From positions 1 to 39,289 of the IMG/VR virus record IMGVR_UViG_3300018839_000003: DNA of 39,289 nt; one strand, written 5' to 3'. This DNA is from a virus. Below, in pieces: positions 1 to 37,058 of the stretch. The notes under the pieces were generated by a model that saw nothing but the letters and a program-made list of their open reading frames with translations, was not told where the DNA came from and did not search any database. Position numbers and translations under genes: made by a program. How positions within the stretch are numbered: the first letter of the stretch is position 1; each line of letters starts with the position of its first letter.

Positions 1-127
1 GCTTCCTTGCGATCCACAAAATAATGCGCTGAGGCAAAACGTTTGTCCGCAATACATGTGCCATTGAAATAATTTCGCTCATTCAGGGCCGACGCGCCGG
101 GCGTGGCCGTCCAGTGCATGACAATAC
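1..127. repeat. Terminal overlap; bases 1-127 are identical to 39163-39289 (circular assembly overlap, unique length 39162 bp)
   Basis: Direct comparison of both ends. The sequence reads through the junction inside one continuous ORF. Confidence 0.95.
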
Positions 128-203
128 CCTTAACCCCTGATAATTTCAATCCCGGACGAGTATACCGGTTAACCTTAACATAGTTTTTTACGACTTTGAC
201 CAT
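1..203 (-). CDS. Endolysin (N-acetylmuramoyl-L-alanine amidase), 5' part; the ORF continues across the circular junction into 39162..38538
   Basis: Minus-strand ATG at 203-201 gives MVKVVKNYVKVNRYTRPGLKLSGVKGIV. This is in frame (84 nt) with MHWTATPG... of track ORF 38538..39281. Full length is 275 aa. Confidence 0.85.
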   Translation of the reverse strand, partial: MVKVVKNYVKVNRYTRPGLKLSGVKGIVMHWTATPGASALNERNYFNGTCIADKRFASAHYFVDRKE

Positions 204-16982: not shown

Positions 16983-18284
16983 TTATCCCCCTATCACATA
17001 AGTTTTATAGAAATGGTTCACGCTATAGCGAAACTCATCCATTGCGTGGTTATTCTCATCAATTGGCTTACCGTTGTCATCCCGGCAGTAAAGCCCGGTT
17101 TCTTTAATGAAGTGGTAATGATCGAATTTGTCATCATCGACCAAGAAGAACAATCCTTCTGATAGCGCGTTCTGTGCCCGCTCAATACCGACCTCAATGC
17201 CTTTCGATGTTCCTTTGATGTCCTTCGCGTTGTTGTCAGCCCTCGTCGTATCAATCCCGAGCAAATGCAATTCCTCTCGTAATGACTTACAGGCCGGATC
17301 GACAAAGAAATCCGCATAAAACATCTGATATTTTTCAGTGCAGTATCTAACAAACTCTTTGATTTCCTTTGCGTAAACACTCATTGCCTTGACTTGGCCT
17401 GTCTCGGCCCCGGAATGGTAATAATGAGCCACGCGATTAAGCCTGTATTCCTTCCGATTGGCCTTTTTGTTGTCAATCATCGTTACGATGTTGCATGAAA
17501 CGCTCGTCGCATCAGATTGACCACCATCAGCCGAGAAAAACATTTGAACAGGCTTCCCGATGAGTGTTTTTGTTTCGTGCTGCTCTTGGTCGAACATGCT
17601 GTAAATGACGCCTTGAGGGTTCACACGCCGCCCTTCCCAGTCCCTTTTCAGGAGATATGGGTTTTTGACAAGCGTGTTGTAAATCTCCCGTTTCCGTTCA
17701 ACGGTCAAAATCGGGTTGTCGTCGATTGTCCAATGCGTCCAGCGTGTGTCCTGAACCTCGAATACGTCCTTAATGACCGGATGATTTGGAGCCGGAGGGT
17801 TAAGATCGGCCAGATGATAGCGCATCTTTGCCGCGAATGTCCGCCGGAAGCACTCCTGAATCATATCCATGTGCAGCAGATTGATTTCACAGAAGACGAC
17901 AGAGCCGAGAGACATACCCGTGATGGCTTTCACGCTGTCCACCTTACCGCCGCCCTTGTAATACACTTTCTTTATGCCTGATGGCGTCTGCACTTCTAAA
18001 TGGTCGCCCAAATCGTCATGCTTGACCTTTGCCAGATTCCCAAATTGATGCTTTAAGCCGGTTCCGTCTCCGTCAATGAAAAGCCTGTATGCTTGTTCCT
18101 GGTTATAGGCCACAATCAAATGGTTCTGGTCAGGCGTCAGGCTCAAATAAAGCGCATAACGAAAATGCCCCGCTGTCGTTTTTCCAGAACGGGGCGTACC
18201 TTCGTTGGCCTCTAATGTGTGATCGAATGGCCTTGTTATGATCATTTGTTGTTTTGGCGAAAACTTAATTTCCATCGCCTTCAC
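16983..18284 (-). CDS. terL: Terminase large subunit (PBSX / Terminase_3-like)
   Basis: 433 aa. Walker A-like GTPRSGKT. The probable start is the ATG at 18275 (MEIKF), after AAGGTGA. Confidence 0.9.
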   Translation of the reverse strand: MKAMEIKFSPKQQMIITRPFDHTLEANEGTPRSGKTTAGHFRYALYLSLTPDQNHLIVAYNQEQAYRLFIDGDGTGLKHQFGNLAKVKHDDLGDHLEVQTPSGIKKVYYKGGGKVDSVKAITGMSLGSVVFCEINLLHMDMIQECFRRTFAAKMRYHLADLNPPAPNHPVIKDVFEVQDTRWTHWTIDDNPILTVERKREIYNTLVKNPYLLKRDWEGRRVNPQGVIYSMFDQEQHETKTLIGKPVQMFFSADGGQSDATSVSCNIVTMIDNKKANRKEYRLNRVAHYYHSGAETGQVKAMSVYAKEIKEFVRYCTEKYQMFYADFFVDPACKSLREELHLLGIDTTRADNNAKDIKGTSKGIEVGIERAQNALSEGLFFLVDDDKFDHYHFIKETGLYCRDDNGKPIDENNHAMDEFRYSVNHFYKTYVIGG

Positions 18285-18936
18285 CTTTGTTCATGGCTTT
18301 GAACAGTTCAGCAACATTTTCGATAAGTGCTGTATCTCCTTTGCCGCCTTTCATCAGCTTGATGCGTTCTTTCGTTAATTCGGTTTCAGCCTTCATTTTC
18401 TCGACTTGTGCCTTCGATAAATCATCAATATGAGCATTTTTAGGATCGAACATACCTAAATGCTTGCCGATCAGCTCAAGCGCCTTCAACGGGTCGCCAC
18501 GCTTCACTTTCGTTGTGACCTTATCAGCTACTAATTCTTCACCGTATGGCACTTCTGTTATTGTTTGCGTCAACTCTGTAATGATCGAACCGTCGATCTG
18601 ATCGGGTGGTAGCAGGGTAATTCGCCCGGTTTCCTCGTCCCATGTCATCAAGTCTCGAATATCAGCAAACGCAAATTTGGCAAGTTGATTAAGCACCCTG
18701 TCAGCAGTAATATTTGTTCGTTTCGAGCGCTTTTCCATTGCCTCAGAAATCGCCTTTTCTATCTTAGGGTTTTTTAGTAGCTTGTGTCCTTCCACGCCAG
18801 CAACGGCCTCGCTGTTTGCTTTGTAGCCCGCTCTCATATAAGCCTGCGTCGCGTTCAGATCGATCAAGTATTCATCCACGAATCTTTTTTGTTTCGGCGT
18901 CAATTTACTCACTACATCCTCACCGCCTCCAGCCAT
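18265..18936 (-). CDS. terS: Terminase small subunit
   Basis: 223 aa. The motif LTPKQKRFVDEYLIDLNATQAYMRAGY is typical of the Terminase_2 family. No clear SD, so the start is uncertain. Confidence 0.85.
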   Translation of the reverse strand: MAGGGEDVVSKLTPKQKRFVDEYLIDLNATQAYMRAGYKANSEAVAGVEGHKLLKNPKIEKAISEAMEKRSKRTNITADRVLNQLAKFAFADIRDLMTWDEETGRITLLPPDQIDGSIITELTQTITEVPYGEELVADKVTTKVKRGDPLKALELIGKHLGMFDPKNAHIDDLSKAQVEKMKAETELTKERIKLMKGGKGDTALIENVAELFKAMNKGEGDGN

Positions 18937-18949
18937 TCATTGTTGTTGA

Positions 18950-19393
18950 TCATCCGTATTTAACCGCCTGATAAGCAAACTCTTGCGCCGCATCTGCCGA
19001 ATGGGATACATAGATTTTTCCGTAATAGAACTTTTGCATTTCTCCCGGCTTCACCCAAAAGGCTGTAAATCCCGGGACATCACCAACCCTTAATGGGACT
19101 GTATTGTCCGGGGATGCCTGAATCTCGATGAATGTAACGCCTTGAGAAGATAGATCAATCATCTTTTCTTCTCCTGCCGCCACTTGCCCTTGAACCATCG
19201 CGCCGACTGCCTGCCATTTTGGATGATTGTTGACACCCACACTTCCGGAAACCTTTTGCGTGGCCGGCCAGTTGTTTACATCAACACTCTGCGTGCCGCC
19301 GCCTCCTGCACTTGTAACCGGCAATGGGTTATCTTTTGATACCGTCACAAACGTATCATTGGGCTTGTCATAGAATCTGACACTTCGAGACAT
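18950..19393 (-). CDS. Hypothetical 147-aa protein preceding terS
   Basis: Track ORF. Beta-rich composition, with no motif I recognise. Confidence 0.6.
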   Translation of the reverse strand: MSRSVRFYDKPNDTFVTVSKDNPLPVTSAGGGGTQSVDVNNWPATQKVSGSVGVNNHPKWQAVGAMVQGQVAAGEEKMIDLSSQGVTFIEIQASPDNTVPLRVGDVPGFTAFWVKPGEMQKFYYGKIYVSHSADAAQEFAYQAVKYG

Positions 19394-19399
19394 TCGCCA

Positions 19400-19564
19400 T
19401 CACTCCTTATTGTTTTTCACGCACCGCCCAAACGGACAGACGTATTTATTTCCGGCCCATGTCCCCCACACGCATCCATGACACTTGTGAGTTTTTCGGG
19501 CCGATTCTCTCGCTTTCTCGCGTTCTTCCTCTCGTTTATCCTGTAAATATTGTCGTAGAATCAT
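19400..19564 (-). CDS. Hypothetical 54-aa Cys-rich protein, first ORF of the late operon
   Basis: Hand-translated MILRQYLQDKREEEREKARESARKTHKCHGCVWGTWAGNKYVCPFGRCVKNNKE. AAGGAG RBS 8 nt upstream of the ATG at 19564. Confidence 0.55.
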   Translation of the reverse strand: MILRQYLQDKREEEREKARESARKTHKCHGCVWGTWAGNKYVCPFGRCVKNNKE

Positions 19565-20134
19565 AGTTTTTTCTCCTTTATTTGCTCTGAGCCGCGCCCG
19601 CGCTTGGCGTTAGCCGGTAGTTGTCCCAAGACTTACAGGGCGCGCATCACAACAAACATAAAAAGCGACCTGCATCGTGCAAGCCGCTTGTCGATTCTGC
19701 CCATATACATCACCGCATCGGCTTCGCATGGGCTATTGCATGAAACGCCTAACACGCTTCAAGGAAACTTTTCTACACTTGGCAGATAGTCTGATGCGGC
19801 CCTTGACCCATTCACTTAACCGCTTGCGTCACCCTGAGAACGCAACGCCACCACATAAATTTGGACACCCTAACCCACATCTTCAAGTGCCCTGCTCCGC
19901 CCCACAATTACTACCTATCCCACCGACCCAATGGCCTCTAAAGTGGTTCCATTTGGCTATTCAATAGCCGGGCGTAAGTTCCCATCTATTACAACGCGTG
20001 AAGGCATAAAAAAGAGCGACCCCGCGTATTCGCAGTGCCGCCAAATGTACATAGTTATAGTGATATTGAAAGCTGCCGGGGGAATGACGGCAACTCTCTG
20101 AAAGAGGTGATCGATTGAAAGGGGAAAACCTCTC
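19565..20134 (-). ncRNA. Candidate large structured RNA / long 5' leader of the late operon
   Basis: About 570 nt with no credible ORF on either strand. Visibly more GC-rich than its flanks. Contains many GC-rich hairpins and an internal terminator. Lies between arpU and the first late ORF. Confidence 0.4.
19651..19689 (-). terminator. Intrinsic terminator inside the late leader, about 90 nt upstream of the first late ORF
   Basis: Minus strand AAGCG-g-CTTGCA-cga-TGCAGG-t-CGCTT followed by TTTTATGTTTGTTG. Confidence 0.6.
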
Positions 20135-20141
20135 ACTTAAT

Positions 20142-20213
20142 ATAATAGCACACTATTCGAGAACTTTTCCAAGCCTTTTCCAAGGAAAAAGTAAGCTTTT
20201 CGAGAACTTTTAA
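20142..20213 (-). promoter_or_regulatory. Putative late promoter region: two AAAAGTTCTCGAA repeats, a tandem CTTTTCCAAG repeat and an extended -10 TGCTATTAT
   Basis: Motifs at 20197-20211 and 20156-20168. Tandem 11-mers at 20164-20185. TGCTATTAT (minus strand) at 20142-20150. No canonical -35. Confidence 0.4.
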
Positions 20214-20223
20214 GGTAAAAAAA

Positions 20224-20685
20224 TTATAGTTTCAAGATATTCCCTAGACTTATCAACAGTTTCCCCATTACCTTGTTCCTTACTTCGTTCAAATAGCTTT
20301 CATGGTATCCGGTGATTTCCGCGACTTCTGATAGTCGTTTAAGGTTTATATAACGCTCGACCACAAATAAGCGCTCGTTTTCTTCTAAGTTGTCTATTGC
20401 CCGATCTATCGAATTTACGATGACTTGAAAAATCTCCTTTTCTTGGCGCAGTTCTAAAGCTTCTTTCCCTTCAATGCGGTCGATTGCTGCATCTTCAACC
20501 TTGCTGCGGATGTCAAACGTTCCTGTAGTCCCTTCCCTTGCCTCATATCTTGTCGTAATGCTCGGCATGATGCACTCAAGCTGTTGTTTTATATTCTCGA
20601 TTCCGGCTTTGTAAGACTTGTAATGCCGTAAATGGTTCTCGATTTCTCGGATTTTTGCTTTTCGTTCTTTTTTATCTGAATTCAA
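20224..20685 (-). CDS. ArpU-family (RinA-like) late transcriptional activator
   Basis: Track ORF 20224..20721. The GAGGGGGA RBS favours the TTG at 20685. The sigma-70 region 4-like C-terminus and the position upstream of terS are typical. Confidence 0.75.
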   Translation of the reverse strand: MNSDKKERKAKIREIENHLRHYKSYKAGIENIKQQLECIMPSITTRYEAREGTTGTFDIRSKVEDAAIDRIEGKEALELRQEKEIFQVIVNSIDRAIDNLEENERLFVVERYINLKRLSEVAEITGYHESYLNEVRNKVMGKLLISLGNILKL

Positions 20686-20698
20686 GACTTTTCCCCCT

Positions 20699-20854
20699 CT
20701 ATAACATGATGAATGAAACAATCAGGCTGAACATTGACGATATGCAGATAGCCGTCATGTTATCCCGTAGATTTTTGTTTTCCCTCTCCCCGACCGCTCC
20801 CAAAAACGATAAGACAATTATGAGCAGCAGTATGATTTTGAATGCTATGATCAT
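20699..20854 (-). CDS. Hypothetical 51-aa two-TM membrane peptide
   Basis: Hand-translated MIIAFKIILLLIIVLSFLGAVGERENKNLRDNMTAICISSMFSLIVSFIML. AGGAGG RBS 8 nt upstream. Confidence 0.55.
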   Translation of the reverse strand: MIIAFKIILLLIIVLSFLGAVGERENKNLRDNMTAICISSMFSLIVSFIML

Positions 20855-29534: not shown

Positions 29535-29565
29535 CTTTTCCCCCTTCTGAGAACTTTTTTTATTT

Positions 29566-29802
29566 TCAAGCCTCTAAAGTTAGCTTTTCGCGAACTTCAT
29601 CGGCAAAAAAAACAGATACATCAATGCCTAACGTTTGGGATATTCTATAAGCAGCTTTTCCCCCGGGATCTTTTACACCTTGTTCTATCTCACAGTAGTA
29701 AGAAGGTGAAAGCCCGACCACTTTAGAAAATTCGTGAAGAGTTTTGTATCCTGCTGCTTTTCTTTTCTCGATCAACCATGTTCGCTTTTTGCGATTTTTC
29801 AA
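29566..29802 (-). CDS. Cro-like XRE-family HTH regulator, first early gene
   Basis: 78 aa, TTG start after GGGGGTGA. The HTH is ...TLHEFSKVVGLSPSYYCEIEQG.... Divergent from cI. Confidence 0.8.
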   Translation of the reverse strand: MKNRKKRTWLIEKRKAAGYKTLHEFSKVVGLSPSYYCEIEQGVKDPGGKAAYRISQTLGIDVSVFFADEVREKLTLEA

Positions 29803-29835
29803 TTTCTTTCACCCCCGTTTCTTGCTGTTGATTTA

Positions 29836-29864
29836 ATTATATTCGCTTATTGCGAACTTATCAA
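29836..29864 (-). promoter_or_regulatory. Early lytic promoter (TTGATA-17-TATAAT) with palindrome TTCGCTTATTGCGAA in the spacer
   Basis: On the minus strand, -35 at 29864-29859 and -10 at 29841-29836. Palindrome at 29842-29856. Confidence 0.65.
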
Positions 29865-29958
29865 CCCTTTTTTTCGAAAAAAGTTGTTTTTTTGAGAACT
29901 TTTTTTGTTTATAGTGAAACCCTTCGAGAACTTCAAACGTAATAATGTATCGATTCGT

Positions 29959-30025: not shown

Positions 30026-30406
30026 ATGTATGGAGAGCGCTTATATCTTTTAAGAAAAGCGAATAGATATACAATGGAGCAAGTAGGGGAAAAGCTAGGG
30101 ATTGCGAAAAGCTCATACGCTGCATATGAGAAGGAAAGTCGGTTCCCTGGATTGGTGAAACTTCAAAAGCTGGCGTTGATTTACGATGTATCAACAGACT
30201 ATATTCTTGGTTTAACCGACGATCCAAGCCCTAAAGCTGACAAAAACAACATTAGAGAAATCCTAGAAAAAGAAAATTTACACTGGGATGGCCGGCCATT
30301 AACAGAAGAAGAATTAGAACCACTCAGAAAATTATTAGAAATGGCCGTGCGGGATAGAATGCCAGATCATACAAAACTTAATAATAAAAGCAAAGCCCGC
30401 GAATAA
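30026..30406 (+). CDS. CI-like XRE-family repressor with no peptidase / autocleavage domain
   Basis: 126 aa. N-terminal HTH (YTMEQVGEKLGIAKSSYAAYEKE). AAAGGGG RBS. Followed by a terminator. Divergent from the Cro-like gene. Confidence 0.8.
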   Translation: MYGERLYLLRKANRYTMEQVGEKLGIAKSSYAAYEKESRFPGLVKLQKLALIYDVSTDYILGLTDDPSPKADKNNIREILEKENLHWDGRPLTEEELEPLRKLLEMAVRDRMPDHTKLNNKSKARE

Positions 30407-34997: not shown

Positions 34998-35204
34998 TTA
35001 TTTTTTACCTACTAATGCCGACGGGTTAAGGTATCTTGCTTTTTCCAACAGCCTTTTTACTTCATCATAACTTTCTCCGACCGTAATTTCCGCTTGATTT
35101 TTATAAACGACCTTGCAATTTTCGCCGTCTCTCCAAAAGGACGCTATTTCGTCAACATTCTCCAAATATTTTTCACCTTCAAACGTCAATTCGATAAATT
35201 TCAT
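34998..35204 (-). CDS. Hypothetical 68-aa protein
   Basis: Track ORF 34998..35267. A GAAAGGGGAA RBS precedes the ATG at 35204 (MKFIELTFEG...). Confidence 0.55.
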   Translation of the reverse strand: MKFIELTFEGEKYLENVDEIASFWRDGENCKVVYKNQAEITVGESYDEVKRLLEKARYLNPSALVGKK

Positions 35205-36930: not shown

Positions 36931-37058
36931 CCCTAAAATTAAAAAAAAGTTCTCGAAAACAAAACTTTTGTTGTTAAGTCCTTTTCCTCTTATTCCAAAT
37001 TAAAGAAATATGATAGAATATTAGAAATGTAAAGAAATGTATGAAAGGGGTTAGGATA

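Follow-up and report, generated by a model that had tools for sequence, protein, structure and literature searches.

Small exchangeable modules of predicted structured RNA in the gap that separates the late regulator gene of a phage from its packaging genes

Introduction

The phage genome in IMG/VR record IMGVR_UViG_3300018839_000003 contains a gap without genes between a late regulator gene and the packaging genes, and the question raised by this locus is what the gap encodes, if not a protein. The window analysed here is the whole of this record (39,289 nucleotides (nt), positions 1 to 39,289), to which coordinates refer unless another locus is named. A first, sequence-only reading of the window had singled out positions 19565-20134 as a GC-rich, hairpin-dense stretch without open reading frames (ORFs), and had proposed that it is a structured RNA read in the late (minus) direction, possibly one large RNA of the ROOL/GOLLD class.

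The gap extends over 659 nt (19565-20223), from the regulator gene (20224..20721) to an ORF of 54 amino acids (aa) at 19400..19564, and all genes around it, which include a 147-aa ORF, terS and terL, are on the minus strand. No credible gene was found in 19565-20223, where only short unconserved ORFs are present (the longest having 96 aa on the plus and 59 aa on the minus strand), and the public gene call of the same contig (JGI metagenome Ga0193596_1000294) has no gene across 19394-20223. The GC content of 19565-20134 is 50.5%, compared with 43.2% for the window, which places it at the 98th percentile of 570-nt windows. Both the lack of ORFs and the raised GC content are thus borne out. In addition, the minus strand of the region is rich in G (32.5% G, 18.2% C; skew at the 95th percentile).

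Here, we conclude from a comparison with related loci that the gap is a mosaic of small predicted RNA modules and terminators, a stronger structural inference than a reading by eye allowed. The three predicted modules are:

Positions 19860..19986, minus strand: module B, a three-way junction plus hairpin P5 with the conserved loop GAAGAUGUGGGUUA (model R2, 118 bits)
Positions 19794..19856, minus strand: module A-core, consisting of GUGGUGG, hairpin H1 (GCGUU/GACGC), AA and hairpin H2 (GCGGUU/GGCCGC) with the conserved loop ..UGGGUCAAG (model R1, 77.2 bits)
Positions 19738..19793, minus strand: module A-ext, a nested hairpin GACU/AGUU around UCUGC/GUAGA followed by GAAGCG/CGUUUC (79% identical to SPO1)

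Results

The folding energy of the region as a whole is unexceptional, with z-scores on the minus strand of -0.7 (19655-20005) and -1.6 (19565-20140) and a z-score of 0.0 on the plus strand. The density of hairpins alone can therefore not carry the claim of a structured RNA, and the case beyond chance rests on comparison, that is, on conservation and compensatory changes.

Homologues were sought by sensitive BLASTN against phage records and plasmids, and by exact-motif and pattern scans of IMG/VR and metagenomes, whose many chance matches were filtered by BLAST or covariance models. For B, A-core and A-ext, identities of 78-85% were found to non-coding DNA in Bacillus phages that are not otherwise related to the window. 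Positions 19739-19834 and 19867-19988 match non-coding DNA of 19 SPO1-group phages with 79-80% identity (E 1e-13 and 2e-23), around tRNA-Ser/(Arg)/Asn genes. In SPO1, the two pieces are found in reverse order relative to the window with the tRNAs between them, and in SP8, Goe9 and Goe16 extra ORFs also lie between the pieces. Calls of short hypothetical proteins overlap the matched region in SP82G and Adastra; such stretches are at present either unannotated or called in this way. A shorter piece, 19796-19859, has 85% identity to phage PM1, in non-coding DNA that is located upstream of terS, and 88% identity to two B. amyloliquefaciens/velezensis phage-plasmids. The filtered pattern scans added the relatives L094, L096, L153, L164, L167, L223, L232 and L253 (L numbers denote homologous loci), and 14 further loci were reached via the 54-aa protein. 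The flanking 9 kb of the window gave no megablast match in phage or plasmid records and no protein shared with the window was found near the SPO1 locus. The exchange of these sequences spans a virulent myovirus group and temperate phages, which have no other detectable DNA or neighbouring protein in common.

Host chromosomal copies were looked for with an A-core pattern scan of genome representatives, which gave chance matches only, the pattern being strict. The exception is a contig of 1177 bp in an actinobacterial assembly (L131, NZ_JBHTVT010000061.1, under the label Isoptericola sp.), which matches the PM1-type double A-core with 99% identity and is probably contaminating Bacillus phage or plasmid DNA. 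SPO1 (L001, 2176-2199) and its relatives have a third hairpin unit with the loop GGGGUAGG just past tRNA-Ser, nested in CCACU/AGUGG, and the upstream non-coding region of SPO1 contains a T-arm-like element, GGUUCGAUUCC. We also considered that A and B might form a single circularly permuted RNA around the tRNAs. This idea was dropped, because A occurs by itself in L153 and B by itself in L164, and because A and B are up to ~900 nt apart in SPO1 relatives, with an ORF within this distance.

The strongest support for a structure comes from A-core. Covariance model R1 was built from eight window- and PM1-type sequences, and the score of the window A-core (77.2 bits, E 1.6e-14) is by construction, as this sequence is part of the seed. 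Independent matches were found in the SPO1 group (28 bits, E ~3e-4), Goe16 (49 bits), L223, L232 and L253, and R1 also matches PM1, L094, L096, the plasmids, L153 and L167. All matches of R1 and of R2, the model for module B, are in the sense orientation, sharing the strand of the neighbouring genes. Across lineages, H2 keeps its loop ..GGUCAAG unchanged, and the H1 stem varies in almost all of them, from GCGUU/GACGC in the window to GCAUCAU/AUGAUGC in L094, GUGUC/GACAC plus GCGGC/GUCGU in PM1, UCGAUAC/GUAUCGA in SPO1 and GUUGCAU/AUGUAAC in L223. Among 17 distinct sequences, 98.3% of the A-core cells are paired and 9 of the 11 pairs have changed on both sides; none of 500 shuffles reached the observed values, and slid partners pair in 26-62% of cells. 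About one sixth of the cells (~17%) are G-U pairs. As these are A-C mismatches on the complement, the predicted fold exists on the minus strand only.

Module B belongs to a proposed new family with the pattern GGGAAC, a P1-P4 three-way junction and the P5 loop UUGAWGA..GGGKUAGG. Its predicted helices are P1 (CGCCC/GGGCG), P2 (GGCUAU/AUAGCC) and P3 (CCACU/GGUGG) stacked on P4 (GGCC/GGUC), followed by P5, whose loop (UUGAAGA..GGGUUAGG) is similar to the H2 loop of A-core. The B sequence of the window is a seed member of R2. With this model, 11 SPO1-group phages score 142-149 bits and L167 scores 116; the short form of the module in L094 and L164 reaches 58-59. On an unfitted MAFFT alignment, 93.6% of the module B cells pair, compared with 42-52% for slid partners, and by pair counts P2, P4 and P5 covary. 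For A-ext, 98.7% of the cells are paired on an unfitted alignment versus 35-55% when slid. Taken together, we conclude that B, A-core and A-ext are conserved RNA modules of the minus strand, which are predicted to fold independently.

A structured RNA read in the late direction, as proposed from the window alone, is therefore upheld by conservation and compensatory changes. The five hairpins seen by eye are all present, and several of their stems are real helices with covariation support: TTGCGT/ACGCAA is H1 of A-core and GGCTAT/ATAGCC is P2 of module B. CGCGCCC/GGGCGCG corresponds to a GC-rich hairpin at 19655-19582, and TGCCG/CGGCA and GAGAGGT/ACCTCTT are two hairpins of a leader. Elsewhere in the window, two more small hairpins carry GGGTTAAGG in the loop (125-142, minus strand; 35015-35034, plus strand), and GGGTYARGG occurs four times in the window, compared with an expectation of 0.6.

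None of the known RNA classes that were searched for accounts for the modules. The whole window had no match to Rfam 15 at gathering score (ROOL, GOLLD, HEARO, T-box, pRNA and EAR included), and a permissive cmscan of 19300-20400 against 4227 Rfam 15 families (E<=10) returned only sX14 (E 7.9) and PVT1_3 (E 2.2), both at chance level. The covariance models of ROOL (RF03087), GOLLD (RF01998) and HEARO, which the sequence-only reading had named for a check, gave no match, and neither did those of known riboswitches, T-box, phi29 pRNA, EAR and RsaE/RoxS. ARAGORN called 0 tRNA or tmRNA genes in the window, which also has no Rfam tRNA match. In 12 homologous loci, Rfam identified tRNAs and one DUF3800-VIII RNA (in SPbeta) only, and GOLLD is absent from the nine loci scanned for it. 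No description of these elements was found in the literature. The modules are new in that they are absent from Rfam 15 and supported by covariation. Two resemblances were rejected. The 'GGGUGGU' in some H2 loops recalls a T-box, which has another architecture and gives no model match, and a CsrA sponge was discarded since 'AAGG(A/G)' lies partly within a covarying stem and the B-type loops have no GGA.

How the modules are arranged can be compared among prophages in which T1 (a terminator described below), the GC-rich hairpin and the 54-aa gene are 94-100% identical to the window. X, C and C' denote further modules:

Window: T1, B, A-core, A-ext, hairpin, T2
L167: T1, X, B, A-ext, A-core, C, T2
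L260, L262 and L263: T1, short X, A-ext, A-core, C, T2
L261, L264 and L267: T1, X, A-ext, hairpin, other
L153: T1, A-core, C', T2, with T1 fused straight to A-core
L271 and L272: about 2 kb with a 195-aa ORF between X and A-core
L266: slot filled by the gene for a 131-aa protein
L268 (1933-2125): regulator gene, 65 nt, one T1-type terminator, GC-rich hairpin, late genes; zero modules

Set, number and order of the predicted modules differ among these near-identical prophages, in which they behave as exchangeable cassettes. A protein gene in the homologous slot had been named beforehand as evidence against an RNA element, and this applies in part: L266 and L271/L272 carry ORFs and L268 carries nothing. 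Outside this group, L094 has A, A, a short B and T1, L164 has a short B and T1 only, and in L141 and L253 the order runs from a weak promoter-like region rich in AT through A-core(s) and T1 to a ribosome-binding site (RBS) and a sigma-like gene. The single terminator hairpin of L268 matches both T1 and T2, and the L268 arrangement looks like the product or the ancestor of a T1/T2 recombination. Together with the stem GCGGC/GUCGC, which T1, T2 and the H2 hairpins of relatives share, this makes recombination at these hairpins a plausible route for the gain, loss and reordering of modules.

Module X (L167 4966-5125; L232 2090-2205) is tRNA-Leu-like, with a large insertion replacing the anticodon/variable region. 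A D-arm (GCGGAAUAGGUAGACGC) and a T-arm can be recognised, the ends pair in the manner of an acceptor stem, and the L232 copy ends in ...CCCGCAU-A-CCA; neither ARAGORN nor Rfam calls it. The association with phages and tRNAs seen in ROOL/GOLLD-type RNAs is thereby borne out for this locus, through module X and the tRNAs of the SPO1 group. Pieces related to X are also found in a 1.6-kb gap with two tRNAs on a Paenibacillus urinalis plasmid and downstream of the RinA gene in Geobacillus phage PK3.5 (L170 3001-3089 and L171 2501-2538).

Protein genes occur in the same places. In L272 (1534-2424) and L223 (~3100-2330, minus strand), the gene for a 195-aa protein with repeated G..LQA.G adjoins, directly downstream, an A-core, a portion of module C and then a terminator, and this gene and RNA, present in two genomic contexts, appear to form a protein-plus-RNA cassette. 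Homologous small protein genes are located in the slot of L266 (1973-2368, 131 aa) and just upstream of A-core in L253 (1590-1935, ~114 aa); both products begin with MASGYGVS.. and finish with ..FYI[KE]. The 145-aa protein of L167 (3287-3724) has a C-terminal end similar to these two proteins, which is a likeness only.

Pieces related to module C were found in the yonN-yonK gap of SPbeta (L169, AF020713; 1324-3006), for example a hairpin, GUAGGGUGAA, in whose stem the changes are compensatory, and two repeats that each combine a hairpin with AAGGAG. The same gap contains a DUF3800-VIII RNA (RF03075) at 2684-2749, which scores 47.5 bits against a cut-off of 40.2; this family has no match in the window, nor in L167 at E<=5. 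The yonN-yonK gap (1.7 kb) lies within a late transcription unit (PMC8270828). Given that it holds both related pieces and a DUF3800-VIII RNA, long structured non-coding stretches at the heads of late operons may be common in Bacillus phages.

Read along the minus strand, the order of elements in and beside the gap is a promoter-like site with repeats, two hairpins with C-rich loops, T1, B, A-core, A-ext, a variable hairpin, T2, the GC-rich hairpin and the RBS and 54-aa gene. The features other than the modules are:

Positions 20224..20721, minus strand: RinA/ArpU/sigma-like late regulator gene (PHROG 36, E 1e-16; PHROG 248, transcription regulator/activator)
Positions 20199-20210 and 20156-20167, minus strand: two exact direct repeats of the 12-mer AAAGTTCTCGAA, operator-like, which recurs at other promoters
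Positions 20142..20171, minus strand: sigma-70-like promoter candidate (TGGAAA, 18 nt, TATTAT, upstream TG) from a consensus scan only
Positions 20068..20136, minus strand: two stable hairpins with the C-rich loops UUUUCCCCUUUC and UCAUUCCCCCG (folding energy (dG) -26.4 kcal/mol, z -5.8)
Positions 20005..20042, minus strand: predicted intrinsic terminator T1, GGCGGC-A-CUGCG-AAUA-CGCGG-G-GUCGC then U6 (dG -16.2, z -2.8)
Positions 19699..19733, minus strand: variable hairpin GCCCAUGCG...CAUAUGGGC (predicted fold), with an 86% match only in L261, L264 and L267
Positions 19655..19689, minus strand: predicted intrinsic terminator T2, AAGCGGCUUGCA-CGA-UGCAGGUCGCUU then UUUAUGUUUG (terminator scan; dG -17.3, z -3.9)
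Positions 19582..19655, minus strand: GC-rich long hairpin directly before the RBS (dG -31.4, z -2.5)
Positions 19400..19579, minus strand: RBS AAAGGAG (19579-19573) and 54-aa Cys-rich gene (CxxC..CxxxxC), the first gene past the gap
Positions 18265..18936, minus strand: terS (Pfam Terminase_2, E 1e-40)

T1, an 11-bp stem with a 1x1 internal loop and U6, and T2, a 12-bp stem plus UUUUUAUGUUUG, both have the features of intrinsic terminators. By prediction, these two GC-rich hairpins of the gap are ordinary terminators. T1 is kept at 87-97% in the relatives that carry it; PM1 and L223 are without T1. It is located downstream of the modules in L094, L164, L141 and L096, and its loop-closing pair, read from the sequence, changes from G-C to U-A in L094. 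The outer stem GCGGC/GUCGC is common to T1, T2 and H2 of the A-cores of relatives, again as read from the sequence, and the H2 stem of the window itself (GCGGUU/GGCCGC) differs. The GC-rich hairpin is 84-100% conserved in all window-type relatives, including the module-free L268. The 54-aa Cys-rich gene is regarded as a real gene on the basis of the conservation of its predicted product in L167 (100%), L096 (62%), L141 (54%) and Geobacillus phage PK3.5 (39%); the protein matches PHROG 32677 and is also present in 14 IMG/VR loci.

On the upstream side, the label ArpU given to the regulator by the sequence-only reading is roughly right. The protein belongs with the PHROG 36/248 regulators and is 56% identical to an ORF of phage-plasmid pSH-B74, whereas its match to the RinA family TIGR01636 (25.6 bits) is under the cut-off of 31.9; it has weak sigma-factor matches and no Pfam match. 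The 12-mer AAAGTTCTCGAA recurs with 0-1 mismatch at the cI-like/cro-like promoter (29891-29934; cI-like gene 30026..30406, cro-like gene 29566..29802) and in a divergent promoter region at 36946-36957. Allowing 0-2 mismatches, it clusters at three promoter regions (20156-20210, 29546-29934 and 36946-36957), and it looks like the operator of the phage. The second repeat falls within the spacer of the promoter candidate 20171-20142. Given the recurrence of the 12-mer at the cI/cro promoter and in the 36946 region, this candidate may be controlled by the phage repressor or Cro, instead of or in addition to the RinA/ArpU-like protein. The promoter regions at cI/cro and at ~36.9 kb also have the common design GGGTTGAT..TTCGCAA..GCGAATATAAT.

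The two leader hairpins between the promoter-like site and T1 were more stable than all of 200 shuffles. They are unique to this phage, as no homologue was found in any relative and no match in Rfam, and they resemble a C-rich small RNA or leader of Gram-positive bacteria. The ~130 nt from the promoter candidate to T1 would give a small RNA with C-rich loops. Pairing of these loops with the G-rich loops of the modules was considered and rejected, since the duplex (-47.6) is weaker than with shuffled leaders (mean -54.9).

Discussion

We favour the reading that structured-RNA modules, exchangeable between phages, form an accessory island in the gap and would probably act in trans via conserved G-rich loops, and we give it about even weight. 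The modules look self-contained owing to their combinatorial presence, their exchange between unrelated phages and the company of tRNAs or a tRNA-like module. We propose that they are transcribed from upstream, in this phage from the promoter-like site overlapped by the operator-like repeats, by polymerase that reads through T1, and that their transcripts would end at T2. Each module would be a self-contained structured RNA and not a switch fitted to the downstream genes. It is likely that a common factor, of host or phage, would contact them at the conserved unpaired G-rich loops (UGGGUCAAG, GUGGGUUAGGG, GGUGGGAUAGGUAG), and the shared stem GCGGC/GUCGC of T1, T2 and H2 is a plausible recombination joint at which modules could be shuffled or deleted.

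Several points weigh against this reading. We infer the promoter, the read-through of T1 and the ends of the RNAs from sequence. No sigma-70-like promoter was found between T1 and the modules, nor across the 950-nt region of L167, so that expression would need terminator read-through or a non-sigma-A promoter. In the temperate/siphovirus-type lineages examined, with the exception of PM1, which has no clear terminator, the modules share the orientation of a late gene and are separated from it by a terminator directly downstream of them, and a layout of modules, terminator and late gene also fits a cis-regulatory leader. With regard to the structures, P1 and P3 of module B are invariant and thus neither supported nor contradicted, the SPO1-group phage phiBsKO1-1 has two mismatches in H1, the comparison covers a handful of lineages from the B. 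subtilis group alone, and two alignments lean towards the model to which they were fitted.

Going one step further, one might tentatively speculate that the modules are 'RNA morons', cassettes traded at terminator-like joints by phages of the B. subtilis group, which would act in trans as decoys or sponges. Possible targets, named in the same speculative vein, are a defence system of the host, RNA-guided or RNA-neutralised, a nuclease that attacks tRNAs or one of the RNA-binding regulators of the host. The DUF3800-VIII RNA in the SPbeta gap, whose class is named for its association with DUF3800 genes, would be compatible with a decoy.

The main rival, which we regard as a serious possibility of lower probability, is a cis-acting leader of the late (packaging) operon, with antitermination similar to put or EAR or factor-dependent attenuation at T2/T1. 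The modules would in this case target the elongating polymerase or the hairpins of the terminators, so that RNAs containing them continue past T2, or past T1 in other phages, into the late genes. Such a leader would account for modules that are always in the sense orientation between the late regulator and the packaging genes, and that are followed by a terminator and then an RBS in the window, L153, L167, L223, L094, L164, L096, L141 and L253; the layout in L141 and L253 is riboswitch-like. A-core, with two hairpins in ~63 nt, falls into the size class of put RNA, and the resemblance of the H2 stems to those of T1 and T2 makes alternative pairings possible on paper. However, an arm swap between H2 and T1/T2 would still leave a stem beside the U-tract and thus gives no obvious switch. 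In window-type phages (window, L153, L167 and relatives), T1 is upstream of the modules, which can therefore not help the polymerase past it, and L268 retains the terminator, the GC-rich hairpin and the late genes in the absence of any module. The number and order of modules vary among near-identical phages, the SPO1-group modules flank tRNAs with no U-tract terminator after them, and EAR, T-box and all riboswitches of Rfam are without a match.

The slot might also be filled with non-functional debris, that is, decayed remnants of tRNA clusters or old terminators. It is hypervariable and, as L268 indicates, dispensable, and a degenerate tRNA-Leu-like module and T-arm- or acceptor-like fragments are present in the same regions. 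We nevertheless consider this explanation unlikely, as the copies in siphovirus-type temperate phages are still 78-85% identical to those in a group of virulent myoviruses and as most pairs of A-core show double-sided compensatory changes; neutral decay would not keep the pairing.

A DNA-level element, such as a pac/terminase site, a recombination hot spot or protein-binding repeats with incidental hairpins, is in our view very unlikely to explain the modules. The modules are located upstream of terS in all temperate-type phages, the GCGGC/GTCGC stems look like recombination joints, with the L268 terminator matching both T1 and T2, and the operator-like repeats at 20156-20210 are probably DNA sites. 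On the other hand, the compensatory changes, with many G-U pairs, keep the pairing on one strand only, and a duplex site bound by protein would typically show the opposite of conserved loops with variable stems. In the window, two genes (630 nt) lie between the region and terS, and the SPO1-group copies are located by tRNA genes, with no terminase gene in the 4.8-kb SPO1 locus examined. The proposal of one large ornate RNA of the ROOL/GOLLD type with a fixed tertiary architecture over most of the gap fits a phage element of several hundred non-coding nt with adjoining tRNA genes or a tRNA-like module, but it is barely credible and largely refuted by the reshuffling of modules, since blocks that are permuted among the window, L094, L167 and SPO1 and singly present or absent in near-identical phages would not be tolerated by such a fold, and since neither the window nor nine homologous loci had an Rfam match other than tRNAs and the whole-region z-scores are ordinary.

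An accessory island of trans-acting RNA modules, if confirmed, would mean that phage accessory slots trade RNA cargo besides protein cargo, and the RNA-moron idea, if true, would add RNA counterparts to the protein anti-defence genes in such slots. If the modules instead act in cis, they would be a new leader element for the late genes of RinA/ArpU-type phages. In both cases, annotation pipelines could gain two or three new covariance models. Phage structured RNAs of puzzling function, such as ROOL, GOLLD and the DUF3800 motifs, seldom occur in genetically tractable systems. Here, B. subtilis genetics is straightforward, because the modules occur in the SPO1 group, PM1 and phage-plasmids of the B. 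subtilis group, and the series of presence and absence in near-identical prophages is a ready comparison set.

Among known systems, ROOL and GOLLD are non-coding RNAs of phages and prophages that are often found near tRNA genes and have no known function; ROOL is ~580 nt long, with six multistem junctions as well as three pseudoknots (PMC5737381). Both are reported to build homo-oligomeric complexes (PMC12286853). The window, a phage-like contig, is similar in context, with homologous modules flanking tRNA-Ser/Arg/Asn in the SPO1 group and a tRNA-like module beside them in relatives, which is a likeness of context and not of membership. In contrast to ROOL and GOLLD, the conserved blocks are small (~55-125 nt), permuted and individually present or absent, and show no sign of a single multi-junction fold or an oligomer. 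The orphan motifs of Weinberg et al. (2017), which comprise DUF3800-I to -XI, drum and skipping-rope, include several with Rho-independent terminators and are rarely located in true 5' untranslated regions (PMC5737381). They are likewise small conserved structured RNAs, and the SPbeta gap contains one of them besides short pieces shared with relatives of this region; however, the window matches none of them, and A-core, A-ext and B differ from them in sequence and fold.

HK022 put and B. subtilis EAR are compact hairpin elements in operons, which act in cis on RNA polymerase upstream of terminators. The two hairpins of A-core upstream of T2 are reminiscent of these elements, whereas T1 is located before the modules, a close relative can dispense with them, they flank tRNAs in SPO1, and no match to EAR was found. 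The tRNA cluster of phage T4 encodes two small stable RNAs, C and D, which the enzymes of tRNA processing presumably release, and the SPO1-group layout of A, tRNAs, hairpin unit and B is similar, whereas the window has no tRNA. Lastly, phage morons and the promoter-stem-loop cassettes of T4-type phages are independent accessory units inserted among conserved modules, with terminator-like hairpins at their borders, and move from genome to genome. In L266 and L272, the slot is taken by protein morons, but most of the cargo described here is non-coding structured RNA and not protein genes.

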